A DNA stretch of 44,582 bases. Origin: a virus. Shown here in pieces: positions 1-23,296 of this stretch. The stretch covers positions 93,019 to 137,600 of IMG/VR virus record IMGVR_UViG_3300018465_000004; one strand, given 5' to 3'. The stretch's first letter is position 1. Every line of letters starts with the position of its first letter. The translations under genes and the position numbers were made by a program. Below the pieces are notes generated by a model that saw only the letters and a list, made by a program, of their open reading frames with translations, did not search any database and was not told the DNA's origin.

Positions 1-522
1 CTCACCCGCCAGGTCGACGACCACACCCGCGCCGCCGCCGTCCTGACCTCCATCGGCGAACAACGCCAGGCAGCCGCCCAGGCCACCATCGAAACCCTGG
101 TCACCAAGGGCTTGCAGAGCATCTTCGGCGACGACCTGTCCTTCCACCTGGTACCTGTCGTGCGGGGGAACCGACCCGAAGTGGACTTCGTGGTCCGCTC
201 CACCCTCGACGGAGCTGCGGTCGACACCCCCGTCATGGACGCCCGCGGCGGCGGCCTGGCCGCCACCGTCGGCTTCCTCCTGCGCCTGGTCGTGCTGCTG
301 CTCTCACCGCACCGCCAGGACACGGTCCTGTTCCTGGACGAGACCTTCGCCCACGTCAGCGCCGAATACGAGCCGCGCCTGGCCGAGTTCCTGCGTGAGC
401 TGGTCGACAAGACCGGCGTGCAGGTCATCATGGTCACCCACTCCGACGCCTATGCCGAACTCGCCGACACCCGCTACCGGTTCCAGCTCGTCGACGGCAT
501 CACTCGGGTCGAGGCGGTATGA
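1..522 (+). CDS. SbcC/Rad50/gp46-like ABC-ATPase, C-terminal part (5'-truncated)
   Basis: Frame is open from base 1; degenerate signature (ARGGG), Walker B VLFLDE and H-loop MVTH. Confidence 0.8.
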   Translation, partial: LTRQVDDHTRAAAVLTSIGEQRQAAAQATIETLVTKGLQSIFGDDLSFHLVPVVRGNRPEVDFVVRSTLDGAAVDTPVMDARGGGLAATVGFLLRLVVLLLSPHRQDTVLFLDETFAHVSAEYEPRLAEFLRELVDKTGVQVIMVTHSDAYAELADTRYRFQLVDGITRVEAV

Positions 523-677
523 CCCCGCAGGAGATCCCCCAGCCGGTGGTCGACCTGCTCGACGAACGCGCCGGGCGCCGGCACAGCCGGGAGGGATCCG
601 TGCTGCGCACCCTCGCCGAGATCCTCACCCTCTACGACCGGCTCAGCGCCGAGGAAAACCCGCCACGCCGGCGGTAG
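519..677 (+). CDS. Hypothetical protein, 52 aa (MTPQEIPQPVVDLLDERAG...)
   Basis: ATGA overlap with the previous stop codon; GC3-biased codons; fills the gap up to thyX; below the ORF-track length cutoff. Confidence 0.65.
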   Translation: MTPQEIPQPVVDLLDERAGRRHSREGSVLRTLAEILTLYDRLSAEENPPRRR

Positions 678-685
678 GGGAAGGT

Positions 686-1516
686 GTGGACAGCGACTTC
701 CAGCCAACGGCACGGGTCATCGCCGACTCGATCTCACCTGCCGGGGTCCGGCTGACCACCATCGAGGTGACACTCCACCGGTTCGTGCTGGCCGAGCTGA
801 ACACCCACCGCGCCTTCAGCCGCAACTCGGCGTCCTCCCGGGCCATCCCGGTCTCCCGCATCCTCAACCGCGTCGCCGACCGGCCAGCGATCCCAGTGCG
901 CTTCCCCGCCGAACAGCGCGGCATGCAGGGCGGCACCGACATCGACGACCCGGTCAAGGCCCGCGAGATCTGGCTCGCCGCCCGCGATGCGGCAGTGGTC
1001 TACGCCGAACAGCTCATCTGCCTCGGCGTGCACAAGAGCGTGGTCAACCGGCTCCTCGAACCGTTCCTGCCGCACACCGTCATCATCTCGGCCACCGACT
1101 GGGACGGATTCTGGCGGCAGCGCTGCTCCGCGCTCGCGCAGGACGAGATCCTCGTCGCCGCCGAGGCGATGCAAGCTGCCCGCCAGGCGTCCACCCCCAG
1201 GCCCGTTCCGTACGGCGGGTGGCACCTTCCCTACCTGCAACCGGAGGATCAGCACGTCTCCAGGTGGGTACATCAGCGCCTGAGCGCCGCCCGCTGCGCC
1301 CGGGTCTCCTACCTCACCCACGACGGACGGCGCGACACCCAAGCCGACCTCGACCTGTACACCAGGCTCGTCGAGGCCGACCCGCCGCACGCCTCCCCGC
1401 TGGAACACCCCGCCACCCCGGCCCGCCCCGGCGCCGCCGTGCCCGGCAATTTCCGCGGCTGGCGTCAACTGCGCCACCTCGTTCTCAGCCGCGACACCGA
1501 GGCAAGCCATGGGTGA
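686..1516 (+). CDS. thyX: Flavin-dependent thymidylate synthase (phage Thy1/ThyX type)
   Basis: ThyX signature ELNTHRAFSRNSASSR, plus ARCARVSY and HASPLEH; GTG start at 686 after a purine-rich GGGGAAGG; the track's start at 395 overlaps other genes. Confidence 0.88.
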   Translation: MDSDFQPTARVIADSISPAGVRLTTIEVTLHRFVLAELNTHRAFSRNSASSRAIPVSRILNRVADRPAIPVRFPAEQRGMQGGTDIDDPVKAREIWLAARDAAVVYAEQLICLGVHKSVVNRLLEPFLPHTVIISATDWDGFWRQRCSALAQDEILVAAEAMQAARQASTPRPVPYGGWHLPYLQPEDQHVSRWVHQRLSAARCARVSYLTHDGRRDTQADLDLYTRLVEADPPHASPLEHPATPARPGAAVPGNFRGWRQLRHLVLSRDTEASHG

Positions 1517-1682
1517 CAACGACGTGCGCCCGATCGGCTACACATACATCGGGATCGACGGACGGCGCTACACCTTGCGCTACCACGGAACCCGGGGATG
1601 GAAGCGCCTCCGGCCCTGGCACAGGCGCTTCTGGGAAGTCATGCTCGGCCGGTACCAGATCAGAGATCACCGGTCGAAGTGA
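1509..1682 (+). CDS. Hypothetical basic protein, 57 aa (MGDNDVRPIGYTYIGIDGRRY...)
   Basis: ATG overlaps the end of thyX; its stop overlaps the GTG start of the radical SAM gene (GTGA). Confidence 0.6.
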   Translation: MGDNDVRPIGYTYIGIDGRRYTLRYHGTRGWKRLRPWHRRFWEVMLGRYQIRDHRSK

Positions 1683-4567
1683 CCAGCCGAAGCCCATCGC
1701 ACATCCAACGGTGGCTGGATGCCAACCTGCACCGCTTCGACCTGGGCGTGCAGTTCCTCGGCGACGAACCGAACGCCCGTGGCAAGTCCTGGGACGACGC
1801 CACCGTCCGGTGGTGCATGGTGGCGTCCTGGCCGTACGAGGCAGCCGCCGGCAACTCCTCCATCCCCGCGGTGTACACCAGCATCAACGACGCCGATCCC
1901 GGCTACCTGTGTGACCGGTTCTACCTGCCGGCCACGCCGCGGGACCTGCGGCTGCTGGAGAAGAACCAGATCCCCATCTTCGGGGTGGAGACCAAGCACC
2001 AGCTGGCCGACTTTGACGTCGTCGGCACCTCCATCTCCTATCCGGTGCTGTCGCTGTCGTTTCTGAAGATGCTCGCCATGTCCGACATCCCGATCCGCTG
2101 GCGTGACCGCGACGCCGCCCCCGGCAACTACCCGATGGTCATCGCCGGGGGACTGTCCTTCGGCGCCCCGGAAGTCCTCGCCCCGGTCGTCGACTGCTGG
2201 TGGCTGGGAGAAGTCGAGGACGAACCCGCAAACCCGGGCATCGGCGCCCTCTGCCAGCGCATCGCCGGCTTCAAAGCGACCGGGCGTTGGACCACCGACC
2301 GGATCGGCTGCTACGCCGAGCTGGCCCGCGAGTTCAACCACCTCTACTTCCCCCGCTTCGTCGAGGTGCACTACGGCGAGGAGGACCGCAGCCACGCCGG
2401 AGTCGGACCCCACCCGTCCAAGCAGGTCGTCGGCTACACCTCGAAGCTCGACGGAATGCGGATGCCCTTCACCAAGAGACATGTCCGCAATCTCGACGCG
2501 ATCGCCCCACTCACTGATCCGCCGCTGCTCTACGCGGACCCGGCAATGGGCTCCGGCGACCTCGAAGTCGCCCGCGGCTGTCCCGCCTGGTGCTCCTTCT
2601 GCGCACTCACCTACCGGCAGAAGCCCTACCGGCAGCGCAGCGTCGACTACGTCGTCGAATACGCGAAGAAATACGCCGCCAACATGGGCTCCGCCCGGAT
2701 GGCGCCGTTCTCGCCCGACTTCCCCATGCACACCGAGCGGAAGCGGCTCATCGCGGCGCTGCTGGAAAACGTCTCGGACGAGGTCGACGCCCCGTCGATG
2801 CGGGTGGATGACTTCATCGCCGACGACCAGTTCATTCTGCTCCAGGTGCACGGCGGCATGGACGCGGTGACTCTCGGCGTGGAAGGCAACAGCCAACGGA
2901 TGCGTGATCTGGTGGGCAAAGGCACCGCGGACGCCGACATCCGGGAAGCTGTCACCCGCGGGATCCGGGCCGGCATTAAGAAGTTCAAACTGTTCATGAT
3001 TAACAACCTTCCCGGGGAAAACGAAGGCGACGTATTTCGCATCCTCAACCTGGCGAAAGACCTCGCTGACATCCGCGAGAGCATGCACCAGCCGAACGTC
3101 CGGATCCAGTTCTCCTGGACACCGTTGATGATCGAAGCAAACACACCGATGCAGTGGTTCGCCGCACCCACCCAGTCCCGGATCCTCGGTGACGTGTGGG
3201 AGGAGTTCCGCGACTTGAAAATCGACTTCAAGCTAGGAGCCAAAGCAGAACCCAACAAGATGGCGTTCTTTCAGCTCTGCCAACGTGCATCCCGGCACGT
3301 GGGGGAGGCCCTCGTGGACGCGATGGAAGCCATCGATCAGGCGTGCTGGGGCGGTGTGCCGCGCAACTTCAAAGACATCATCGTCGAAAAGCTACACACC
3401 CACGGCTTTCGCAACGGATACAACGACTGCTTTGACGAGCGCAAAAAGAACGACATGTTCGGCTGGGAGTACATCGACCAGGGCATTTCGGTGGAGATGC
3501 TGTGGCAGACGTATGTCCAGATGCGTGAATTCATCACAAACACCGACTCCCACAGCTACGACCTCAACTTCGACACCGACTACCACGGCTCGGAATGGAT
3601 CGAACGCTGCGACACCAAATGCCACGGCAAGACCTGCGGAGCCTGCACCTACGCGGACCTGAAGATCCGCACCGGCTACCTGCGCGCAGCCCAACGCGAA
3701 CGCCATATCGACCTGTCCACCCTCGCCGTGGTCGACCAACGCAGCCAGGCCATGCGGGTCCGGGCCCGGCTGGCCAAACCGGCCGCCTACCGGTTCGTGG
3801 CCAACCCGCACTGGCGCCACGCGGTGCGCCGCGCCGCCTTCCGCGCACAGCAACAGCTCAACCTCACACACGGCATCGCCAAACGGTCCATCCGCTTCGC
3901 CTCGGATGAGATCAAGCACAAGGACTGGACCTACGGCACCGACTACCTCGAACTGGCCTTCACCCGCCGGCTGTCCGCCGACACGGTCCGGACCTTCCTG
4001 GTCGCCATGGACGCCGAACTCGGCCGCTGGATGGACATCACCGACTGGGTCCCGCACCCGGCCGGCTCCACCACCTTGACCGCCGACATCGACCTGTCGT
4101 TGTTCGAGCTGGAGGTCGACACCGAACCGGCCGCGGTCCTCAACCGGCTCGGGTGGTGGCGGGCCTGCGACCGCGTACCGATGCGCCTACGGGTCGAAGG
4201 CGGCTACTTCGCACCCACCTCGGAGCAGGTCAACGCCCACGACTTCGTCGACGACCTCTGGCTCGTGCGCGACGGCGCCAACGCCGTCCTTCGCATCCTC
4301 AGCCGCGGACGCCCCAACCCCTACCACCTCTATACCGCACTGATGGGCCGCCCGTCCTGGCTCGACGCCGCCAAGACCCCCGCCCGCCGGGTCGAGACCT
4401 TCCTCGCCGTGGACCGCCGCCAGCAGGACTTCCTTCGACCCAGCTGCCTGGACTGCTCCCTCCAGGTCCCCACCACGGTCCTTGACCGGCCCTACGACCC
4501 GCACCGCTGCCCACGCTGCCGTGACCAGCACGACGGCCAGATCCTCCAGGAGGCGACCTACCCATGA
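1679..4567 (+). CDS. Radical SAM protein (TIGR03960-like) fused to a TIGR03936/DUF2344-like domain and a C-terminal Zn ribbon
   Basis: CxxxCxxC in EVARGCPAWCSFC; FDVVGTSISY and GEVED motifs; Cys cluster CDTKCHGKTCGAC; RVRARLAK..RFV...RRAAFRA segment resembling DUF2344; terminal CLDC...CPRC. Confidence 0.85.
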   Translation: MTSRSPSHIQRWLDANLHRFDLGVQFLGDEPNARGKSWDDATVRWCMVASWPYEAAAGNSSIPAVYTSINDADPGYLCDRFYLPATPRDLRLLEKNQIPIFGVETKHQLADFDVVGTSISYPVLSLSFLKMLAMSDIPIRWRDRDAAPGNYPMVIAGGLSFGAPEVLAPVVDCWWLGEVEDEPANPGIGALCQRIAGFKATGRWTTDRIGCYAELAREFNHLYFPRFVEVHYGEEDRSHAGVGPHPSKQVVGYTSKLDGMRMPFTKRHVRNLDAIAPLTDPPLLYADPAMGSGDLEVARGCPAWCSFCALTYRQKPYRQRSVDYVVEYAKKYAANMGSARMAPFSPDFPMHTERKRLIAALLENVSDEVDAPSMRVDDFIADDQFILLQVHGGMDAVTLGVEGNSQRMRDLVGKGTADADIREAVTRGIRAGIKKFKLFMINNLPGENEGDVFRILNLAKDLADIRESMHQPNVRIQFSWTPLMIEANTPMQWFAAPTQSRILGDVWEEFRDLKIDFKLGAKAEPNKMAFFQLCQRASRHVGEALVDAMEAIDQACWGGVPRNFKDIIVEKLHTHGFRNGYNDCFDERKKNDMFGWEYIDQGISVEMLWQTYVQMREFITNTDSHSYDLNFDTDYHGSEWIERCDTKCHGKTCGACTYADLKIRTGYLRAAQRERHIDLSTLAVVDQRSQAMRVRARLAKPAAYRFVANPHWRHAVRRAAFRAQQQLNLTHGIAKRSIRFASDEIKHKDWTYGTDYLELAFTRRLSADTVRTFLVAMDAELGRWMDITDWVPHPAGSTTLTADIDLSLFELEVDTEPAAVLNRLGWWRACDRVPMRLRVEGGYFAPTSEQVNAHDFVDDLWLVRDGANAVLRILSRGRPNPYHLYTALMGRPSWLDAAKTPARRVETFLAVDRRQQDFLRPSCLDCSLQVPTTVLDRPYDPHRCPRCRDQHDGQILQEATYP

Positions 4568-4755
4568 CCGACACCGACCAGCCCGCGACCACCGGCGAGC
4601 AGCCCGCACCCGACGCCGGCAACACCGAAGACCTCTCCCAGCTCACCGAAGACCTCGACGACAACGACGACGTATACACGCGTCTCGAACAGGTCAGCCC
4701 GGACCTCATCTGCCTGCCCGCCGACACCGTGACCACCGATGAGTCGACAGCCTGA
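4564..4755 (+). CDS. Small acidic hypothetical protein
   Basis: ATGA overlap; AGGAGG RBS upstream. Confidence 0.65.
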   Translation: MTDTDQPATTGEQPAPDAGNTEDLSQLTEDLDDNDDVYTRLEQVSPDLICLPADTVTTDESTA

Positions 4756-5050
4756 CCAGGCAGCCTTGCGCCCCTGCGCCGATCCGGAGTGCCGGACCGG
4801 CGCAGGGCGGTCGATGGCCGAACCCGAGCAGGACGGCGAGCACTGCTACTACTCCTGCCCCACCTGCGGCTACTTGTTCGGCTTCTCCACCGCCCGGCTG
4901 TCGCTCACCGCGCAAAACGACGGGGCCTGCGCGGTAGGTGTACCTGAGGACGTACGCCGGGCCGCTTCGGCACCCATGCGCAACGTCCTCGCCGCGCAGG
5001 GACCCCTTCTGACGATCGGCAAGGTGCCTGATGACCGAACAGCTGCGTGA
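4739..5050 (+). CDS. Putative zinc-finger protein
   Basis: CADPEC...CPTCG cysteine pairs; overlaps both neighbouring genes. Confidence 0.6.
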   Translation: MSRQPDQAALRPCADPECRTGAGRSMAEPEQDGEHCYYSCPTCGYLFGFSTARLSLTAQNDGACAVGVPEDVRRAASAPMRNVLAAQGPLLTIGKVPDDRTAA

Positions 5051-5768
5051 CGGCTCCACAGTGGAAGACCCCCGCCTGGACCGGATCCCCGACCCGGACC
5101 AGCGGGACAGCCTCTACTCGATCATGGAAGTGATCGGCGGCCAGGAAAAGCCGGTCACCATCAACTGGGGCATCCCCGAGGGCGAGCCGGTCCTCAACCA
5201 GGGCCAGGAAGGCGCCTGCGTCGGCTTCGGCTGCACCAACGAGCTGCGGTTCAACCCGGTCCCGGTCGGCGGCCTGACCGCCACCTTCGCCCGCGAGACC
5301 GTCTACTGGCCAGCCCAGCGCGACGACCAGTGGCCCGGCGGCGCCTACCCCGGCGCGGAACCCCGCTACGAAGGAACCTCCGTACGAGCCGGCGTCAAGC
5401 AAATGGTCAAGCTCGGCTACGTCGGGGAGTACCGGTGGGCCAAAACCGAGCAGGAAATGGCCCTGGCCATGACCGTCGGCCCGCAGATCCTCGGCCTGGA
5501 CTGGTACCGGGGAATGCTCAAACCCAACAGCACCGGGTACCTGCGCCCCACCGGCCCCAAGGTCGGCGGCCACTGCTGCCTGGCGATCGGCCTGAAAGTC
5601 ACCGCCCCCGGCGACTCCGGCTACTACACCATCTACAACTCCTGGGGACCCAACTGGGGGAAGAACGGCACCGCCCGCATCTCCCGTGCCGACATGCGCC
5701 GGCTCATGACCTCAGGCGGCGAAGCCTGCATCATCACCCAACGCTTCAACCCCCCACAGCCCCGCTGA
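5031..5768 (+). CDS. Papain-like cysteine peptidase (C1A-like)
   Basis: NQGQEGACVGF (oxyanion Gln, catalytic Cys), GGHC (His) and YNSWGPNWGKNG (Asn). Confidence 0.88.
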   Translation: MTEQLRDGSTVEDPRLDRIPDPDQRDSLYSIMEVIGGQEKPVTINWGIPEGEPVLNQGQEGACVGFGCTNELRFNPVPVGGLTATFARETVYWPAQRDDQWPGGAYPGAEPRYEGTSVRAGVKQMVKLGYVGEYRWAKTEQEMALAMTVGPQILGLDWYRGMLKPNSTGYLRPTGPKVGGHCCLAIGLKVTAPGDSGYYTIYNSWGPNWGKNGTARISRADMRRLMTSGGEACIITQRFNPPQPR

Positions 5769-5797
5769 AACCCCCAGCCTGAAAGGTCGCCAACGCC

Positions 5798-6922
5798 GTG
5801 GAAAGTCTTGCCCTGAAGTACCGCCCCCGCACCTTCGACGACCTGGTCGGCCAACGCGCCGTCCAGGTCGTCCTGCGCCAGATGGTCGACAAGGGCCGGG
5901 TACCCCGAGCTATGACCTTCAGCGGAGGCCGCGGTACCGGCAAGACCACCACGCTTCGCATCCTCGCCGCCGCCCTCAACTGCGACACCCCACCCGGACC
6001 CTGCGGCCACTGCGTGCCCTGCAAGTCCACCTTCGACGGCACCAACCTCAACCTCGTCGAAATCGACGCCGCCTCCAACGGCCTGGTCGACGACATCCGT
6101 CAACTGCGCCAGCACGCCCTCTACGCCGTCGGGGGCGGCTGGCGCGTCATCGGACTCGACGAGGCCCAGTCGATCAGCACCGCCGGCTTCAACGCCCTGC
6201 TCAAGATGATCGAGGAGCCCCCGCCGGACACCGTCTTCGTGTTGCTCACCACCGAACCCGGCCGCATCCCCGACACCGTCGCCTCCCGCTGCACCCGGTT
6301 CACCTTCCGGCGCATCGCACCGGCCGACATCACCGAACGACTCACCCAGATCTGCACCGCCGAAGGCATCACCGTCGAGCCCGGCCTGCTCAGCCTCGTC
6401 GCCGAGCGCGCCGACGGAGCACTGCGCGACGCCGTCATGCTGCTCGACCAGATCACCCAGGTCGGCGTCAACACCGTCGAGCAGTTCGTCGACGTGATGG
6501 GGGAGACCGACCCCGGACCGGCACTGCTCGGCGCCATCCGCACCGGCAACCACGCCACCGCATTCGGCGCCCTGGCCGACACCCTCACCCGCACCGCCGA
6601 CCCCGCCACCATCGCCACCGCGCTGGCCGCCACCCTGCGCGACGTGTGCATCCTGCACGCCGCAGGGACCGTCAACGCCCAGGGCGAGGCCCTCAGCGCC
6701 CGCGAGCAGCTCGCCGCCGCCCTCGACACCCCCACCGCGGTCGCCGGCCTCAAGCTGCTCTGGGACCACAAGACAAAGATCCGGTCCGGGGACGACCCGC
6801 GCACCGGGCTCGACCTCCTCGTGGCCATGCTCGTCGACGCCCTCGCCCCCGCCCGGCCCACCGCGCCGGCCGCCAGCCCTGAACGTCGGCTCACCCTCGC
6901 CGAGATGGCCGCCCGCCGGTGA
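5798..6922 (+). CDS. dnaX: DNA polymerase III gamma/tau-like clamp-loader ATPase
   Basis: LALKYRPRTFDDLVGQ, Walker A GGRGTGKTT, Zn motif CGHCVPC, EIDAASN, DEAQ, SRC motif and GALRDA. Confidence 0.93.
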   Translation: MESLALKYRPRTFDDLVGQRAVQVVLRQMVDKGRVPRAMTFSGGRGTGKTTTLRILAAALNCDTPPGPCGHCVPCKSTFDGTNLNLVEIDAASNGLVDDIRQLRQHALYAVGGGWRVIGLDEAQSISTAGFNALLKMIEEPPPDTVFVLLTTEPGRIPDTVASRCTRFTFRRIAPADITERLTQICTAEGITVEPGLLSLVAERADGALRDAVMLLDQITQVGVNTVEQFVDVMGETDPGPALLGAIRTGNHATAFGALADTLTRTADPATIATALAATLRDVCILHAAGTVNAQGEALSAREQLAAALDTPTAVAGLKLLWDHKTKIRSGDDPRTGLDLLVAMLVDALAPARPTAPAASPERRLTLAEMAARR

Positions 6923-7635
6923 CCCGACTGTTCGTGCTTATCCCCAGCCGGCAGCGGCCCGGGTCGGTCGGTGCCATGGCCCGCGCCTTCGCCAACACCT
7001 GCACCGCCGACACCACCATGATCTGGTGCATCGACGGTGACCCCGACGAGGACGACTACCGGACCGCCGTCGAGGTCAGCCGGGCCACCTTCTACCCCGC
7101 CATGCGCATCCACCTCGGCCATGAACGGCGCCGCCTCGTCGGCACCCTCAACTTCTGGTCCGTCATGTACGCCAGCCGACCCGACCGGCCCTGCGCCATC
7201 GCCTACCTCGGCGACGACCACCGCCCGGCCACCTACGGCTGGGACTCCGCCTACCTTGCCGCCCTCAAGCTGCTGGGCGCCGGGATCGTCTACGGCGACG
7301 ACGGGCACCAGGGCGCCAACCTGCCAACCCAGATGGCGATGACCACCGACATCGTCCGGGCGCTGGGCTACCTCGCACCGCCGCCGCTGACCCACATGTA
7401 CTGCGACAACTTCTGGAAAGACCTCGGCGAGGGCGCGGGCTGTCTGCTCTACCTGCCCGACGTGAAGGTCACCCACCTGCACCCCGGCGCCGGCAAAGGC
7501 AGCTGGGACGCCTCCTACCACGAAAGCAACTCAGCCGGCAGCTACGCCACCGACAAGGCCGCCTACGAGCGGTACCGGGCCGAAGAACTGCCGCGGGCCG
7601 TCGACATCGTCAAGAACCTGCGGAGCAACCTGTGA
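6919..7635 (+). CDS. GT-A fold glycosyltransferase (GT2-like)
   Basis: VLIPSRQRP N-terminus, YLGDDH metal-binding motif, HMYCDN and C-terminal HLHP. Confidence 0.75.
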   Translation: MTRLFVLIPSRQRPGSVGAMARAFANTCTADTTMIWCIDGDPDEDDYRTAVEVSRATFYPAMRIHLGHERRRLVGTLNFWSVMYASRPDRPCAIAYLGDDHRPATYGWDSAYLAALKLLGAGIVYGDDGHQGANLPTQMAMTTDIVRALGYLAPPPLTHMYCDNFWKDLGEGAGCLLYLPDVKVTHLHPGAGKGSWDASYHESNSAGSYATDKAAYERYRAEELPRAVDIVKNLRSNL

Positions 7636-8243
7636 GAACCGTGCACCTGCCGCCGCACCAGGCGTGGACCTTCGCCCGGCTCCCGGCCGTCCTAGCCGAA
7701 CTCGGCATCGATCCGTTCGTGGTGGCCCACGTCGGCGCCCACCACGGCGAAGAGGTCGAGATATACCGCCAGTGTGGCTTCGGGCACTGCTACCTCTACG
7801 AACCCGATCCGCGGTCCTACGCGCTGTTGTGGGAACGTTTTCACGACGCTGACGATGTGACCGTCTCACCGTTGGCGGTCACTCCCGCCCCGGTCGGTCC
7901 TCAGTGGCTGCACCTGGCCGAGCGCAGCGTGTGGAGCGGCCTGCACCCGCACCCCACGGCCACCGGGCAGGCAGTCGAGGTTCAGACCGTAGCCATCGGC
8001 GAGCTGCTGGACGCCACCAACGTCCTGGTCCTGGACACCCAGGGCTCGGAGATGGAGCTGCTGCGCGCGGCCGACCTGGACAAGCTCGACCTGGTCATCG
8101 TGGAGACCAGCCGCCGCCCCGGCGACGGCGCCGCCCACTTCGTCGAGGCCACCGGCTACATGACCAGCCGGGGATGGCGGGCGATCGAGGAGTGGGTCCA
8201 CGACGGCTCCGGCTACACCGACACCGTGTTCGCACCCGCATGA
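7632..8243 (+). CDS. FkbM-family SAM-dependent methyltransferase
   Basis: HVGAHHGEE, YEP and LDTQGSE motifs. Confidence 0.85.
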   Translation: MRTVHLPPHQAWTFARLPAVLAELGIDPFVVAHVGAHHGEEVEIYRQCGFGHCYLYEPDPRSYALLWERFHDADDVTVSPLAVTPAPVGPQWLHLAERSVWSGLHPHPTATGQAVEVQTVAIGELLDATNVLVLDTQGSEMELLRAADLDKLDLVIVETSRRPGDGAAHFVEATGYMTSRGWRAIEEWVHDGSGYTDTVFAPA

Positions 8244-8950
8244 ACCGGCGGCTCGTCTTCACCGCCTACAACCGACCGCGCTACTTCTCCCCGGTGATGA
8301 CCACCTGGTGGAAGGTACGCGAATACGCGGACTGGCAGCCCCGGGTATTCCTCGAACCCGGCCCCGCCGAGCACACGATGACCCGCATCGCCACCACCTA
8401 CGGAGCCCAGGTACACCTCAACCCCCACCGGCGGGGTGTGCTGTCCAACCCCTGGCACGCCCTGGACACCGCGTTCACCGAAGGAGCGGACTTCGTCGTG
8501 CTCGCCGAGGACGACGTCATGGTCTCCGACGACGTCCTGGAGTACTTCACCTACGCCTCAGCAGCCTTCCGCACCGACCACGTCCTCGGAATCTGCGCCA
8601 ACTCCAACGCCACCACCTGTTCACCCGCCGACGAGGGACTGCTGCGCCGTACCAAGGCCATCAACCCACTCGTGTGGGGCACCTGGGCCGACCGGTGGAC
8701 CGGCGTGCTGCGCGACACCTGGGACCACAGCTACTCCTCTGGAACCCCTGACGCCCCACAGTCCGGGTGGGACTGGAACATCGCCCTTCGGGTGATCCAG
8801 GACTGGACCGTGATCGCCCCGTACGCCAGCCGCTCCACCCACATCGGCGAGTACGGCGGAACCCACTGCACCGTCGCCCAGTTCCCCGACACCGTCGCAC
8901 CCACCTTCAACCCGTGCCGCCCACGCACCACCTACCGCCTGGAGGACTGA
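8240..8950 (+). CDS. GT-A fold glycosyltransferase (GT2/GNT-I-like)
   Basis: ATG at 8240 (ATGA overlap); TAYNRPRY, VVLAEDD, WGTWADRW, WDW and SRSTHIG motifs. Confidence 0.82.
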   Translation: MNRRLVFTAYNRPRYFSPVMTTWWKVREYADWQPRVFLEPGPAEHTMTRIATTYGAQVHLNPHRRGVLSNPWHALDTAFTEGADFVVLAEDDVMVSDDVLEYFTYASAAFRTDHVLGICANSNATTCSPADEGLLRRTKAINPLVWGTWADRWTGVLRDTWDHSYSSGTPDAPQSGWDWNIALRVIQDWTVIAPYASRSTHIGEYGGTHCTVAQFPDTVAPTFNPCRPRTTYRLED

Positions 8951-9600
8951 TGAGGCCCGCCCCGAGCGACCCACCCGAGGTCGAAGCCCAGCTCTGGCGC
9001 GGCTTCACCGGCAACGTCGGCTGGGACATCGGCGCCAACTGCGGGCAGAGCCTGCCCACCATGACCAAACGGTTCCGGCACGTCGTGGCCTTCGAGCCGG
9101 CCGAGGAATGCTACGAGTACCTGGTCCCGTGGGTCGGGCGTGCCTCGCTGGCAAATGTGGTCATCAGCAACTACGCCCTGTCCGACGTGGACGGACAGAT
9201 CGAGCTCGCGGCCCTCCCCAGCAAGATCGACAGCGGGCAGCTGGTCACCCCGGGAACCCCCGGCATGGAATGGTCCCCGTGCGTCTGGTTCGACGCCGAC
9301 AACCGGGCTGTCGAGGCCCGCACCGCGGACTCCCTCCTGGAGGAGTTCAGCCCGCCGAACTTCCTGAAGATCGACGTCGAGGGCCACGAGCAGAAGGTGC
9401 TCGACGGCGCCCGTCAGCTCATCAGCGACTACCTGCCGGCGATGCTCGTCGAGTTCCACACCCCCCAGCTCGGCGAGTCCTGCCGGGCCACGCTGGTCGA
9501 CAACTACGGCTACCGCGTCGAGGTCGTCCGGCACCCGCACTACCTGCCGGGCAGCCCGATGTGGCACCAGCACGGCTGGCTTCGCGCCTTTCCGTCCTGA
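8950..9600 (+). CDS. FkbM-family SAM-dependent methyltransferase
   Basis: DIGANCG, AFEP and FLKIDVEGHE; TGATG overlap with a GGAGG RBS. Confidence 0.9.
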   Translation: MRPAPSDPPEVEAQLWRGFTGNVGWDIGANCGQSLPTMTKRFRHVVAFEPAEECYEYLVPWVGRASLANVVISNYALSDVDGQIELAALPSKIDSGQLVTPGTPGMEWSPCVWFDADNRAVEARTADSLLEEFSPPNFLKIDVEGHEQKVLDGARQLISDYLPAMLVEFHTPQLGESCRATLVDNYGYRVEVVRHPHYLPGSPMWHQHGWLRAFPS

Positions 9601-9606
9601 CCCCTT

Positions 9607-9613
9607 CCGATAA
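9607..9613 (+). promoter_or_regulatory. CCGATAA motif, putative late-promoter -10 element
   Basis: Recurrent motif at gene boundaries; lies in the hairpin CCTTCC-GATAA-GGAAGG. Confidence 0.5.
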
Positions 9614-9621
9614 GGAAGGAC

Positions 9622-10065
9622 ATGGCCGGAAACCTTGAGGAACTCGACGGCGCATTCGAGCTGCCGGCGAACGTCTCCGACCCGAAGATGCGCGAGTTGT
9701 ACGAGGTTCTCGTCGCCAAGATGCGGGCCGACGCCCGGCATCTGCCCATGAACACGGTGCAGCAGCTGCTCATCGAGCGGATTTGCTACAACTACATCGT
9801 CCTGCGCTCCAAGGAGGCCGGCGAGCTGGGCGGGTTCGGCTCCGCCAGCGTGCAGAAGGACTACAACACCTTCTGGCTGTCGATGACCTCAGAGTTCAAC
9901 AAGCTGCTCGGCAAGGTCGAGCCGCTGTCCGGGGCCGACAAGAAGGCGTTCCTGCGGGAGATGCAGCAGATCATCGTCAACACCGTCTCCACGGTGCCCG
10001 ACCCCAAGACCCGCAGCGGCCTGCTGGAGCGGTTCGCCGCTGCGTTCGAACACGCCGGAATCTAG
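9622..10065 (+). CDS. Helical hypothetical protein; candidate terminase small subunit
   Basis: Strong RBS; size and position upstream of terL; TerS function is positional inference only. Confidence 0.55.
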   Translation: MAGNLEELDGAFELPANVSDPKMRELYEVLVAKMRADARHLPMNTVQQLLIERICYNYIVLRSKEAGELGGFGSASVQKDYNTFWLSMTSEFNKLLGKVEPLSGADKKAFLREMQQIIVNTVSTVPDPKTRSGLLERFAAAFEHAGI

Positions 10066-10073
10066 GAGACCCG

Positions 10074-10328
10074 ATGGCCAACACCCCTACCCCCAAGACC
10101 CCCGAGCAGCCCAAGCAGGCCCCGGCCAAGGCGCCGGAGCCCGGCACCGACGCCGGTGAGATCCGGTACTTCTCCGGCACCATCACCAAGGTCGACGCCC
10201 AGGGCCGCACGGTGATGTCGGACCACCTCATGCCCGGCGAGCAGCTGCGGCGCGAGGTGACCAACCGGTACGAGGCGAGCCAGGGCGCCCGGCAGAAGTC
10301 GGAAGCCAAGCCGGACAAGGACAACTAG
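10074..10328 (+). CDS. Hypothetical protein, 84 aa
   Basis: AGGAG RBS before ATG at 10074; typical codon usage. Confidence 0.7.
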   Translation: MANTPTPKTPEQPKQAPAKAPEPGTDAGEIRYFSGTITKVDAQGRTVMSDHLMPGEQLRREVTNRYEASQGARQKSEAKPDKDN

Positions 10329-10379
10329 TCCACAGCGGACAGCCAGCGGCAGCCGGAATCCACAGTGAGAGACGGGGAC

Positions 10380-11201
10380 ATGGGGACGATCATCTTCGAC
10401 CGGGATGAGCTTGACCTCATCGTGTCCCTCGCCGGTTGCACGCTGAACAAGTCCCCCGGGAAGAACTGGGTCGAGGGCGCGGGCGGTCTGCCGGAGTACA
10501 TCTGCCGCATCGCCCGCGCCATCCATCGCACCGGAAAGACCGTCTCTCAGGCGATCGCCATCGCCGTGTCCCGGGTCAAAAAGTGGGCCGCCGGAGCCGA
10601 CGACGTCGATGCTGACACCCGGGCCAAGGCCGCCAAGGCACTGGCCCAGTGGGAAGCGCTCAAGGTGAAGAACAAGGCCAAGACGGCAGCCAAGAAGGTC
10701 GCCGGCAAGGCAAGTGGTGCCGGCGCGGACCGCGACACCGTGCGGGCCAGCTCCGTCGCCGGCCACGAGATCCTGTGCCTGGCCAAGACCGACTTCAACG
10801 TCGACAAGGTGAAGGCCGCGTTCGACAACCACACCCGCTCGGCCCGTAACGCCTGGCGCGCCGCAAACCCGAGCAGCAACTACGAGGACGGCCCGCCGTA
10901 CTTTTACGTTCGGGAGCAGTGGACCAATTACCTCATCGTCTCCACTGACGGGTATCGCAGTGACGGCAGGCTGTTCAAGGTCGGCTACACCGTCGACGCC
11001 AAGCAGAACGTCACCTTCGAAGAGCCGGTCGAGGTGACCACCAAGTACGTCGTCGTCCAGTCCAGCGACGTCGACGACACCGGCATCAGCGACGCCGACC
11101 TCCAGAAGGTGCTCGCCATGTCCGCCCCCGGCGACACCGCCGACCTGGACACCATCCTGCGGTTCGTCGGAAAGCCGGCTAGGCCGATACAGCCAGCGTG
11201 A
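10380..11201 (+). CDS. Phage hypothetical protein (NWVExxGGLPxYI domain)
   Basis: Clean ORF between the small genes and terL; start at 10380 or 10365. Confidence 0.75.
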   Translation: MGTIIFDRDELDLIVSLAGCTLNKSPGKNWVEGAGGLPEYICRIARAIHRTGKTVSQAIAIAVSRVKKWAAGADDVDADTRAKAAKALAQWEALKVKNKAKTAAKKVAGKASGAGADRDTVRASSVAGHEILCLAKTDFNVDKVKAAFDNHTRSARNAWRAANPSSNYEDGPPYFYVREQWTNYLIVSTDGYRSDGRLFKVGYTVDAKQNVTFEEPVEVTTKYVVVQSSDVDDTGISDADLQKVLAMSAPGDTADLDTILRFVGKPARPIQPA

Positions 11202-13099
11202 GCGATTTCGCAGCCTGGCTACGGCAGTCGGCGGACAAGGCCGGCGCCGAACTCGGCAGCATCTTCGCCGAGGAGCCGGTCAGCCTGACCATCTTCGTGC
11301 AGGACCGCGCCTACCTCGGCAACCCGCCACTGTCGCTGGTCCAGTACGAGGCCGTGCGGCACATCGAACGCATCTACTATCCCGACCTGTACCCGGTGAT
11401 GGCGCGCGAGTTCGAACCGGGCAAGCAGGCAGGCCGGTTCCACGTCGGCGCGGTCAGCAGCTGGCGCGACGAGCCGTACTGGTCAAGCCCGGTCCGGATG
11501 ACCAACTTCATCACCCTCCAGTGGGGCAAGGGCAGCGGCAAGGACCACGTCGCCCGGGTGGCCAGCATGCGCATCGCCTACCTGCTCGGCTGCCTGGAGT
11601 CGCCGCAGAACTACTACGGCATGCCCGAACAGGACACCATCCACCTGCTCAACGTGGCCAGCAGCTCGGCCCAGGCGCAGCAGGCGTTCTTCATGCCGAT
11701 CGTGCGGGCGGTGCGCCGGCCGGGCAACTGGTTCGGCGACAAGTGCGAACCCCGGCAGAACGTCGTGTCGTACAAGAAGAACATCGAGTCCATCTCCGGG
11801 CACTCCGATGCGGAGACCCAGGAGGGCCTCAACCTGATGCTCGCCATCGCGGATGAGATCGACGCCTTCAAGACGAAGAAGGAGACCGCCGCCCGTCGCG
11901 GCGCCACCGCCCGGGAACCCACCAAGAGCGCCGAAGGCATCCTCAACATGATGCGCACATCCGGCGCTACCCGGTTCCCCAAGGTGTTCAAGAACGTGCG
12001 GATCTCCTTCCCCCGTTATCTCGGGTCGACCATCCAACGTCTCACCGCCGAGGCCAAGGCCGACCTCAAAGCCAACGGCATCGATTCGCGGCACTACGTG
12101 TCCGGGCCGATGGCCACCTGGGAGGTCAACCCCCGCATCACCGGCAAGGAGGTCTTCGCCGGGGACTACAAGGACGACCCGTTGATGGCCAAGGCCAAAT
12201 TCGAGTGCAAACCGAGCCGGGCCATCAACCCCTACTTCCGCAACCACGCCGCCATCGACGCCTGCTTCCTGCCGATGACACACCTGCCCGTCGAGGTCAG
12301 CTACCGGCTCGAAGACGGCACCGGCCGCCCCGTCTGGGTGCCCCGCTACCGGTTCACCGACTCCTTCTTCCCGGTCCGCGGCGCGGCCTACGCCATGCAC
12401 GCCGACCTGGCCGTCACCGGCGACCGCGCCGGCATCGCCATGGCCCACGTGGTGCGCTGGAGCGAACACGAGATCGTCGCCGAAGACGAGGACGGCGCGC
12501 CACATCCGATCCGGGAAATGCGCCCCCACGTCAAGGTCGACTTCGTCATCTCCTACAGCTCCGACACCTCGGCCAACCCGCCCCGGGAGATCCAGATCCG
12601 GTGGGCCCGGCAGCTGTGCTTTGAGCTGATGAAGCGCGGCTTCAACATCCGCCGCTTCACCTTCGACGCCTTCGCCAGCACCGACAGCATGCAGATCCTG
12701 GAGACCAAGGGCATCGAGTCGGAACGGATGTCCACCGACCTGCACGAGGACCCCTGGCGCAACCTCGCCGACCTGGCCTACGAGGGCCGGCTCACCATCC
12801 CGGCACCGGCCCCCGCGGACCCGACCAACCCACCGGACTTCCTGCTGCGCGAGGAGCTGCTCAGCCTCACCCGGCTCCCCAACGGCCGCGTCGACCACCC
12901 CAGCGACGGCAGCAAGGACGAGGCCGACGCACTGGCCTGCGCCGTGCTTGGCGCGGTCATCCTGGGCGGCCAGGAGGAAACCGGCGGCGCCCGCGCCTAT
13001 CACAGCGCCGCGGAGATCAGCGTCGGGCGGGTCTTCGACCTCCCGGTCGGGGTCAACCCCAGCACGGTGTGGGAGACCGAGATCCCCTCACCCTTCTAG
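11198..13099 (+). CDS. terL: Terminase large subunit
   Basis: Walker A WGKGSGKD, Walker B AIADEID, RNase-H-like nuclease motifs HADLAVTGD and DHPSDGSKDEADA; lies directly upstream of the portal gene. Confidence 0.93.
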   Translation: MSDFAAWLRQSADKAGAELGSIFAEEPVSLTIFVQDRAYLGNPPLSLVQYEAVRHIERIYYPDLYPVMAREFEPGKQAGRFHVGAVSSWRDEPYWSSPVRMTNFITLQWGKGSGKDHVARVASMRIAYLLGCLESPQNYYGMPEQDTIHLLNVASSSAQAQQAFFMPIVRAVRRPGNWFGDKCEPRQNVVSYKKNIESISGHSDAETQEGLNLMLAIADEIDAFKTKKETAARRGATAREPTKSAEGILNMMRTSGATRFPKVFKNVRISFPRYLGSTIQRLTAEAKADLKANGIDSRHYVSGPMATWEVNPRITGKEVFAGDYKDDPLMAKAKFECKPSRAINPYFRNHAAIDACFLPMTHLPVEVSYRLEDGTGRPVWVPRYRFTDSFFPVRGAAYAMHADLAVTGDRAGIAMAHVVRWSEHEIVAEDEDGAPHPIREMRPHVKVDFVISYSSDTSANPPREIQIRWARQLCFELMKRGFNIRRFTFDAFASTDSMQILETKGIESERMSTDLHEDPWRNLADLAYEGRLTIPAPAPADPTNPPDFLLREELLSLTRLPNGRVDHPSDGSKDEADALACAVLGAVILGGQEETGGARAYHSAAEISVGRVFDLPVGVNPSTVWETEIPSPF

Positions 13100-22432: not shown

Positions 22433-23296
22433 ATGAACACGGACCCTGGGCTGCTGACACCCGAACGCGTCTCCCGGCTCGATGACCTCATCGCGGAAGC
22501 CGGCCAGATCCTGGAGACGGCGATCGAGACCCACGTCTACGCCGACCGGCGGACGGTCGCAGCTATCTGCTGCCTGTTCTCCGGCGGCAACGACTCCACG
22601 GTCTTGACCCACCTTTTCCGGAACCGGGCCGATTACGCCGTTCACATCAACACCGGCATCGGAATCGAACAGACCCGGCAGTACGTCAGGGATACCTGCA
22701 TCGCGTTCGGACTGCCGCTGATCGAGGAGCATCCGCCGCCGGGCAGCACATACCGGGAGATCGTCCTAGACCGCGGCTTCCCCGGACCCGCCCACCACTG
22801 GAAGATGTACACCCGGCTCAAGGAACGTGGCCTGGAGAAGGTCCGCACCCGGTTGGTCCCCAACCCCTACCGGCAGCGGGTCGTCTTCCTGGCCGGGCGC
22901 CGCCGCGACGAGTCCCACCGCCGCGCCGCAGTTCCCGAGCAGGGCCGAAAGCGGTCCATGGTGTGGGTTTCCCCGCTGGTCAACTGGACCAAGCTCGATA
23001 TCAACACCTACCGCCTGCTCCATGACCTTCCGCGCAATGAGGTGTCTGACCTGCTTCACATGAGCGGCGAGTGCTTGTGCGGCGCCTTCGCCAAGAAGGG
23101 CGAGCTGGACGAGATCGGTGACTGGTTTCCCGACGTCCGCAAGCAGATCGAGGAGCTTCAGGAGGAGGTCCGGGCCGCCGGACACCTCGAACAGCGATGC
23201 CAGTGGGGATGGGGCGCCTACCGAGATGGCGGGCCGCGTTCCAAGTCCGGACTGATGTGTTCGACCTGCGAATGGGCCGCCGACGCTCGGCAATGA
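22433..23296 (+). CDS. PAPS-reductase-family (PP-loop) protein
   Basis: FSGGNDS PP-loop, GRRRDES, SPLVNWT, SGECLCG and C-terminal CSTC. Confidence 0.88.
   Translation: MNTDPGLLTPERVSRLDDLIAEAGQILETAIETHVYADRRTVAAICCLFSGGNDSTVLTHLFRNRADYAVHINTGIGIEQTRQYVRDTCIAFGLPLIEEHPPPGSTYREIVLDRGFPGPAHHWKMYTRLKERGLEKVRTRLVPNPYRQRVVFLAGRRRDESHRRAAVPEQGRKRSMVWVSPLVNWTKLDINTYRLLHDLPRNEVSDLLHMSGECLCGAFAKKGELDEIGDWFPDVRKQIEELQEEVRAAGHLEQRCQWGWGAYRDGGPRSKSGLMCSTCEWAADARQ

Follow-up and report, generated by a model that had tools for sequence, protein, structure and literature searches.

A phage-lineage radical SAM enzyme of the TIGR03960/TIGR03936 type, encoded between sliding clamp and clamp loader and carrying a predicted clamp-docking tail

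The gene and its domains

The DNA analysed here, referred to as the window, is a stretch of 44,582 nt (positions 93,019 to 137,600 of the IMG/VR record IMGVR_UViG_3300018465_000004) that forms the last 44.6 kb of a 137.6 kb virus record with 68% GC. The record represents an uncultured 138-kb phage of high-GC bacteria, and the window includes head genes for a Mu-like portal, a MuF protein, a protease and an HK97-type capsid protein. At 1679-4567 lies a single intact gene for a protein of 962 amino acids (aa), which is the phage-lineage version of the TIGR03960 radical S-adenosylmethionine (SAM) / TIGR03936 (DUF2344) enzyme. The enclosing open reading frame (ORF) spans 1598-4567 on the plus strand, and the GTG at 1679 overlaps the stop codon of an upstream 57-aa ORF (GTGA). 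The N-terminus that follows from this start agrees with the consensus of 35 homologues, and a database entry 100% identical to the gene product is also 962 aa long. From N- to C-terminus, the protein consists of a B12-domain-like region, a radical SAM core, a cluster of four cysteines, a C-terminal domain (C-domain) and a CxxC...CxxC ribbon (Table 1).

Table 1. Coordinates of the gene, its parts and its neighbours (window positions unless another locus is named)
Feature	Position	Strand	Basis or remark
Complete coding sequence, 962 aa plus stop	1679..4567	+	GTG start codon overlaps the stop of the preceding ORF
N-terminal Rossmann-like ("B12-binding-like") domain	1679..2443	+	PF19864 match and Foldseek
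Radical SAM core	2564..3538	+	PF04055 on aa 296-458; barrel extends to about aa 620
C301xxxC305xxC308, putative ligands of the SAM-cleaving [4Fe-4S] cluster	2579..2602	+	Cysteine conservation
Second cluster, C644-x3-C648-x4-C653-x2-C656	3608..3646	+	Invariant in homologues
DUF2344/TIGR03936-like domain with TruA-type pseudouridine-synthase fold (aa ~691-909)	3749..4405	+	Profile-profile comparison and model
Q915-Q-D917-F918-L919, beta-clamp-binding-like pentapeptide	4421..4435	+	Conservation and predicted interface
C-terminal Zn ribbon, C923xxC926-x17-C944xxC947	4445..4519	+	Cysteines at least 90% conserved
212-aa ABC/SbcC-type ATPase gene, 3' part	1..522	+	Conserved upstream neighbour
Sliding-clamp gene, just before the ATPase gene, outside the window	L032:15703-16902
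ThyX-like gene	395..1516	+	Pfam Thy1 E 1e-6, PHROG 85 E 1e-64; neighbour not conserved
Small Cys-rich protein, 103 aa	4739..5050	+	Often between radical SAM gene and clamp loader
Clamp-loader (DNA polymerase III gamma/tau-like) gene	5798..6922	+	Conserved downstream neighbour

A first-pass annotation, made from the letters alone, had read the gene as a fusion of TIGR03960-like and DUF2344-like parts lying beside thyX, with an intact CxxxCxxC motif from 2579, a second cysteine cluster, a C-terminal domain from ~3752 and a terminal CxxC...CxxC ribbon. All of these features are present. C301, C305 and C308 of the first motif are invariant in 36 homologues. The core gives a PF04055 match of 58.1 bits (cut-off 29.5), which places the protein in the radical SAM superfamily, and the N-terminal domain matches Pfam PF19864 (Radical_SAM_N2) on aa 64-181 (nt 1868-2221) with an E-value of 6e-24. 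When the whole protein is compared with hidden Markov models (HMMs), as that annotation had proposed, the outcome is divided: TIGR03960 is matched, although below its curated cut-off, and neither TIGR03936 nor PF10105 is matched directly. The TIGR03960 match covers aa 17-615 and positions 4-579 of the 605 in the profile (E 1.1e-55, 189.3 bits); the cut-off is 462.3 bits and a genuine cellular member scores 986.5 bits. The architecture of the TIGR03960 family, that is, a PF19864 N-domain, a radical SAM core and a cysteine cluster after the barrel, is complete. Since the match spans nearly the whole profile yet stays below the cut-off, we regard the protein as a full-length homologue that lies outside the curated family. 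Ten other phage-type members behave in the same way, with 127-364 bits on TIGR03960 and TIGR03936 unmatched.

The AlphaFold model of the full-length protein has a predicted local distance difference test score (pLDDT) of 85.8 and a predicted template modelling score of 0.86. Its nearest structures in Foldseek are class-B radical SAM enzymes (MgmA, OxsB, TsrM, CysS, TokK and AprD4), followed by MiaB and MtaB, with E-values from 3e-10 to 2e-4 for class-B methylases and MiaB. A PDB profile search also matched MgmA (9ccb, E 1.3e-5). The resemblance of the modelled N-domain to cobalamin enzymes appears to be a likeness at the level of the fold, to MgmA, OxsB, TsrM and TokK; PF02310 was matched by one of the 36 homologues, weakly (E 0.09). 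AprD4 is an example of a B12-domain enzyme without cobalamin.

The second cysteine cluster (nt 3608-3646, CDTKCHGKTCGAC) is probably an auxiliary Fe-S or other metal site. At the equivalent place, eight of nine cellular fused proteins have C-x4/5-C-x2-C-x2-C, with three cysteines detected in the ninth, and a split gut-bacterial protein has three cysteines at this position. The second cluster is a feature of the family.

The C-terminal domain and the tail

The relationship of the C-domain to TIGR03936/DUF2344 emerges from comparison of profiles. Direct searches with the 962-aa protein found no TIGR03936 or PF10105 match at E-values up to 0.1-1 (cut-offs 71.9 and 23.8 bits, respectively); PF10105 was matched by 7 of 36 close homologues at E-values up to 1, the best being 6.5e-5. 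We built an alignment from the C-terminal 300 residues of the proteins at 21 IMG/VR loci, and separately aligned canonical TIGR03936 sequences of Desulfobacterota, Faecalibacterium and other bacteria. In hhalign, the phage profile aligned to the canonical profiles over 182-210 columns with a probability of 95.9-96.0% and E-values of 4-6e-9. Judged from these alignments, the phage C-domain is homologous to TIGR03936/DUF2344 over essentially the entire domain, as the first-pass annotation had supposed. Significance was reached only against TIGR03936 profiles: when hhalign compared the phage profile with one TIGR03936 sequence or with a profile of TruA, the E-values (0.022 and 0.39, respectively) were not significant. 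Feature matches in the ESM Atlas, which serve as a lead only, were all to DUF2344 clusters (score 0.83).

The suggestion that this part of the protein might have a pseudouridine-synthase-like fold is borne out by modelling. The modelled C-domain starts at aa ~691-692 (nt ~3749-3752), has a pLDDT of 88.5 and adopts the TruA-type fold that characterizes the TruA family. VIA-align gave a Z score of 12.1 to Thermus thermophilus TruA (1vs3_B; root-mean-square deviation 2.9 Å over 187 aa), with Z above 10 also for Escherichia coli TruA, Pus10, Pus1 and Pus3, and Foldseek found TruA, Pus1 and Pus3 at E-values of 3e-5 to 1e-4. This fold fits the treatment of DUF2344 in Pfam as half of a split pseudouridine-synthase domain (PMC7955657), and it fits the weak cross-matches that the TIGR03936 HMM makes to real TruA genes.

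Does the domain still make pseudouridine? Canonical TIGR03936 aligns to TruA with an E-value of 1.2e-6 and has a proline where TruA has its catalytic aspartate. The corresponding loop of the phage proteins is longer and its alignment is ambiguous, placing either T751 or a residue near I745 at that point, and the catalytic-loop region contains no aspartate conserved across the phage family. D743 was considered as the catalytic residue and rejected: the profile alignments give it no support, and it is invariant in the near clade only, being A, S, G or E in distant phage homologues. The alignments therefore lean towards absence of the TruA catalytic aspartate (R-T-D-x-G-V-H loop) from the phage domain. 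Given the proline in the canonical family and the lack of a family-wide aspartate, the C-domain is most probably a module for binding and presentation rather than an active pseudouridine synthase. Its conserved arginines and lysines are R695, R717, R718, K735, R736 and R904.

Directly before the Zn ribbon is a pentapeptide, QQDFL, that the first-pass annotation overlooked. In the homologue alignment, D917 never varies and F918 is retained in at least 90% of sequences. The ribbon is present in 145 of 188 long phage-type proteins, and in 92 of these 145 it directly follows Q-x-[DSN]-[FLMW]-[FL]. None of the 10 cellular ORFs that we read has a terminal CxxC pair. We predicted the complex of the phage clamp, as a dimer, with the 58-residue tail (aa 905-962), both taken from this genome. 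The docking score was 0.65 and the best of three controls scored 0.00; scores this high were obtained for 58 of 80 solved complexes and for 2 of 110 mismatched pairs. Contact agreement between runs was at least 82% and the pLDDT of the partner at least 71. In the predicted interface, tail residues 10-16 (RQQDFLR) lie on clamp residues 167-172, 234-240, 315, 340-345 and 359-363, which correspond to the canonical peptide-binding pocket of E. coli beta. The tail is thus predicted to dock in the peptide pocket of the phage's own sliding clamp. Distant members at loci L014, L017, L018, L020 and L025 are without QxDFL; what they share beyond the ribbon is another conserved tail, EGKVIAALAG.GVLQV, possibly a docking motif of a different kind.

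Relatives and genomic neighbourhood

The phage-type branch is divergent and is viral wherever its context is readable. More than 120 homologues with 48-78% identity were found on contigs of up to about 140 kb. A search of 1.84 billion representatives with the C-domain profile gave 136 clusters (at 50% identity), and its full-length matches are mostly about 850-1050 aa long, or longer where inteins are present. In a phylogenetic tree, the window protein is placed in a compact clade, with a support of 100 and a stem length of 0.71, within a divergent fused group, and cellular sequences form a separate clade (support 99-100). Hence, the expectation that the phage gene would be divergent and not nested among host orthologues is correct among the cellular sequences sampled in this tree, which is without actinobacterial chromosomal copies. 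A further homology search gave members from Desulfobacterota, Bacillota and Pseudomonadota only. For the most divergent fused proteins (the P0228 group), a scan of IMG/VR with their alignment gave only two weak matches.

Megablast of positions 1-12000 of the window against GenBank phages found no match, and tblastn against the same set gave only six weak matches, of which the best two look like bacterial DNA at the matching places. MT836750.1 (L034), filed as a phage, resembles Faecalibacterium DNA and encodes the ribosome GTPase YlqF along with TIGR03960 and TIGR03936. Gut-metagenome proteins match its TIGR03936 protein with up to 100% identity, and one relative, at 78%, is named Faecalibacterium. 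Similarly, the start of "Microcystis phage MaAM05" (MW495066.1, L035) looks bacterial, with trpS, mqnC and ispG. A search for prophage copies in GTDB species genomes found only one distant match, in Geobacteraceae (28% identity), from which no host could be read. For the gene itself, no sequencing run was listed, nor any RNA data set containing it.

Fusion of the two parts is not peculiar to the phage copy. TIGR03936 was found in 40 of 41 Desulfobacterota genomes, mostly within ORFs that also encode the radical SAM part and measure about 800-930 aa, so that fusion of the radical SAM part and DUF2344 is ordinary in cells. In four of the five genomes checked, an RNase G-type gene follows immediately after the cellular fused gene, and in a gut bacterium the cellular gene adjoins YlqF. 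Our search of the literature on DUF2344, TIGR03960, TIGR03936, PF10105 and PF19864 found no functional study or assigned reaction, in agreement with the first-pass annotation, and no paper describing the phage form. The phage protein is a novel form of a known, functionally orphan family.

Many of the homologues contain inteins, at six or more insertion sites. C305/C308, within CxxxCxxC, account for most of the insertions, and further sites lie near aa 60, 175, 345, 404-430 and 520, and at C653. The intein-bearing relatives include P0004, P0007, P0071, P0089, P0124 and P0129, and some homologues have two or three inteins and reach up to 2062 aa. Insertion at no fewer than six sites, including cysteines of the clusters, argues that the gene is functional and that these sites are strongly conserved. 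With so many insertion sites, some of them within the Fe-S motif, the family is also a useful case for intein biology.

The neighbours of the gene are conserved as a replication block. It begins with the beta sliding clamp and continues with a 212-aa ABC/SbcC-like ATPase, the radical SAM gene, often a small Cys-rich (Zn) protein, and the clamp loader; clamp and loader flank the radical SAM gene in more than 20 IMG/VR phage contigs, which measure 35-152 kb. The first-pass annotation treated adjacency to thyX as meaningful context; linkage to thyX as a conserved feature is ruled out, since ThyX-like genes are present in only 2 of 25 related loci, and the conserved context is instead the clamp, the small ATPase and the clamp loader. 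Upstream, no neighbour is as constant as the 212-aa ORF. It matches phrog_15167 and phrog_77 and appears to be the C-terminal half of a split SbcC/Rad50-like ATPase, whose 311-aa Walker-A half is at 87301-88236 of the genome (L032:11301-12236); SbcD-like, PD-(D/E)XK nuclease and sliding-clamp genes separate the two halves. The 103-aa Cys-rich protein (PCADPEC ... CYYSCPTCGY) is present at about 15 of the 25 related loci, has no family match and could be a partner of the radical SAM enzyme. A papain-family (C1) cysteine peptidase gene (5031-5768; Pfam E 2e-7, phrog_16701 E 2e-36) also lies within the replication block and is found in only some relatives. Outside the block, a gene with a PAPS-reductase domain (PF01507, E 4e-16) lies at 22433-23296 within the head module, between the protease/scaffold and major capsid genes.

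A set of related phages, retrieved by means of the clamp loader, allowed us to compare presence and absence of the gene. It lies between clamp and loader in 16 of these phages and is missing from others. It is therefore not a core gene, although widespread and, in the phages that have it, strongly conserved. Being dispensable yet conserved suits a role in modification or protection.

Proposed role, alternatives and known systems

What is the function of a radical SAM enzyme encoded beside the clamp? We propose that a [4Fe-4S] cluster on C301/C305/C308 would cleave SAM to give a 5'-deoxyadenosyl radical, and that the four-cysteine site at aa 644-656 would carry an auxiliary cluster; that both sites hold clusters we infer from their cysteines. 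The TruA-shaped C-domain, probably past making pseudouridine itself, would bind nucleic acid and offer one nucleotide to the radical SAM site. The phage-specific tail, comprising QQDFL and the Zn ribbon, would fasten the enzyme to the beta sliding clamp of the phage itself, and the target of the clamp-held enzyme would be phage DNA, or primer RNA/DNA, in the replication fork or immediately behind it. Most likely, the enzyme would there make a covalent modification of base or sugar, for example C-methylation or another alkylation; the nearest structures of the model suggest methylation, alkylation or methylthiolation. A clamp-tethered, nucleic-acid-modifying radical SAM enzyme, in which the TruA-like domain, itself dead, would offer up a nucleotide from DNA or primer RNA/DNA at the fork, is the reading that we favour, tentatively and at somewhat short of an even chance. 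We infer that the substrate is nucleic acid, and DNA in preference to RNA. It is possible, but in our estimate rather doubtful, that this is the first radical SAM enzyme tethered to a replisome clamp, that it installs an undescribed radical-derived mark on new phage DNA (e.g. against restriction), and that it reveals how the dead pseudouridine-synthase fold of the near-universal TIGR03960/DUF2344 family presents a flipped-out nucleotide to the radical SAM site.

Several observations weigh against a clamp-tethered DNA-modifying enzyme. The family has no member with a known substrate or product, and the position of cellular copies beside RNase G and YlqF points to RNA rather than DNA. Complexes of clamps with peptides are textbook structures and the docking may reflect likeness to solved complexes; because such complexes are common among solved structures, the pass indicates likeness to a clamp-binding motif and not proven binding. 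The alignments used for docking also fall outside the calibration of the prediction method. The motif region is modelled at a fairly high pLDDT, about 83-84, and therefore the peptide may be packed rather than free. Moreover, the motif is missing from part of the family (L014, L017, L018 and L025). Finally, several phages with equally related loaders (43-46% identity) are without the gene (L086, L087 and L094/L095); in L087 (6747-9958) and L094/L095 (L094:4589-7388), nothing but small unrelated ORFs separates the clamp from the loader. Since the same clamp and loader occur without it, the gene is dispensable for replication itself. Phages such as L087 and L094 are natural "minus" controls.

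An alternative explanation is that the phage enzyme does the same job as the cellular TIGR03960/TIGR03936 pair, namely radical SAM modification of a host or phage RNA (tRNA, rRNA or another structured RNA), and that its position in the replication block reflects only the timing of middle genes. The TruA-type fold handles RNA, and tRNA-bound structures of TruA and Pus3 are among the top structural matches; the neighbours of the core include the tRNA enzyme MiaB, and the genes next to the cellular copies point the same way. The phage also has genes for tRNA-Leu(UAA) and tRNA-Met(CAU), at L030:18543-18617 and L032:10308-10382 (~56543 and ~86308 of the genome); the bldA-like tRNA-Leu(UAA) reads TTA, a rare codon in high-GC actinomycetes. 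However, these tRNA genes lie about 8 kb and 38 kb upstream, far from the radical SAM gene. The clamp-binding-like motif and the Zn ribbon are specific to the phage-type branch, and the synteny with clamp and clamp loader is conserved, neither of which favours an unchanged role on RNA. We consider an RNA-modifying role possible, though on balance unlikely. Predicted docking on the clamp would also suit a DNA repair enzyme that reverses or processes a lesion, or a host-imposed mark, at the fork instead of installing one, by analogy with spore photoproduct lyase, which repairs DNA by radical SAM chemistry. The surrounding block, with SbcC/SbcD-like genes, a PD-(D/E)XK nuclease, clamp and clamp loader, is compatible with such repair, as is the accessory nature of a gene missing from some relatives; a few relatives match Fpg/IleRS and XPA zinc fingers, weakly and without significance (E about 0.05). 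Beyond membership of the radical SAM superfamily, there is no likeness to spore photoproduct lyase, the nearest structural neighbours are methylases and methylthiotransferases, and the cellular family is housekeeping-like and RNA-linked. Lesion processing would be an improbable function.

The closest solved relatives of the core (MgmA, TsrM, OxsB, TokK, CysS and AprD4) act on proteins, peptides and small molecules. It is conceivable, with a small chance of being correct, that the substrate is not nucleic acid but a protein, for example one associated with the replisome or clamp, a small molecule or a cofactor, and that the TruA-like domain is a mere scaffold. The apparent lack of conservation of the pseudouridine-synthase catalytic aspartate would be consistent with a scaffold; the conserved arginine/lysine set of the TruA-like domain would not, and the context is nucleic-acid metabolism in cells and phages alike. 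The last alternative, that this is a recently captured or decaying host gene with no phage-specific role, is largely refuted and we treat it as essentially excluded. The ESM Atlas clusters, again a lead only, name Actinomycetota most often, which would speak for a capture. Against this stand a TIGR03960 score of 189 bits where the cut-off is 462 and a true cellular member reaches 986, the placement in a tight clade among divergent fused proteins apart from the cellular clade, the spread of homologues over large contigs, and the invariance of every motif.

The TIGR03960/TIGR03936 pair is present in most genomes of whole bacterial phyla, as the Desulfobacterota sample illustrates, and the phage branch offers a way to learn the reaction of this widespread bacterial enzyme pair. 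It is a simpler system for study: one polypeptide, few possible substrates in the genome, and a predicted partner in the clamp. If DNA is modified at the fork, the chemistry would be new to phage DNA modification and the enzyme would be a clamp client of a new class; if RNA is modified, the phage enzyme would give the first assay handle on the cellular family.

Comparison with known systems places the phage protein closest to the cellular TIGR03960 and TIGR03936/PF10105 pair. The two share the same domain order (PF19864, CxxxCxxC core, four-cysteine cluster, DUF2344), and homology spans both profiles at full length. Unlike cellular members, the phage protein stays well short of the two curated cut-offs; it also exceeds them in length by about 100 aa and has the QQDFL peptide and Zn ribbon, which are absent from the cellular frames read. 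The phage gene lies between clamp and clamp loader whereas the cellular gene lies upstream of RNase G, and inteins are frequent in phage-type relatives. The fold of phage aa ~691-939 is like that of TruA, Pus1 and Pus3 (PDB 1vs3, 2nqp, 4iqm and 8okd), but identity to the TruA family is only about 10% and the RTDxGVH catalytic loop appears to be absent from the phage domain. Class-B radical SAM enzymes and MiaB/MtaB (MgmA 9ccb, OxsB 5ul3, TsrM 6wte, TokK 7kdy and MiaB 7mjx) likewise have their radical SAM barrel after a Rossmann-like N-domain. MiaB also resembles the phage protein in having a nucleic-acid-type domain after the core and a second cysteine cluster; however, the auxiliary cysteines of MiaB are in the N-domain and the phage cluster comes after the barrel, and the appended domain of the phage protein is TruA-like, not TRAM.

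The last comparison is with proteins that bind the beta clamp. Motifs of the QL[SD]LF type recruit DNA polymerase III alpha, polymerase IV, UmuC, MutS and Hda, and we know of no radical SAM enzyme with a clamp-binding motif. The phage pentapeptide, too, is of the form Q-x-[DS]-[FLM]-[FL] and lies near the C-terminus, and it is predicted to sit in the cleft between clamp domains II and III, touching the C-terminal residues of the clamp. It differs from these binders in that the motif is internal, immediately before a Zn ribbon, and in that binding is predicted.

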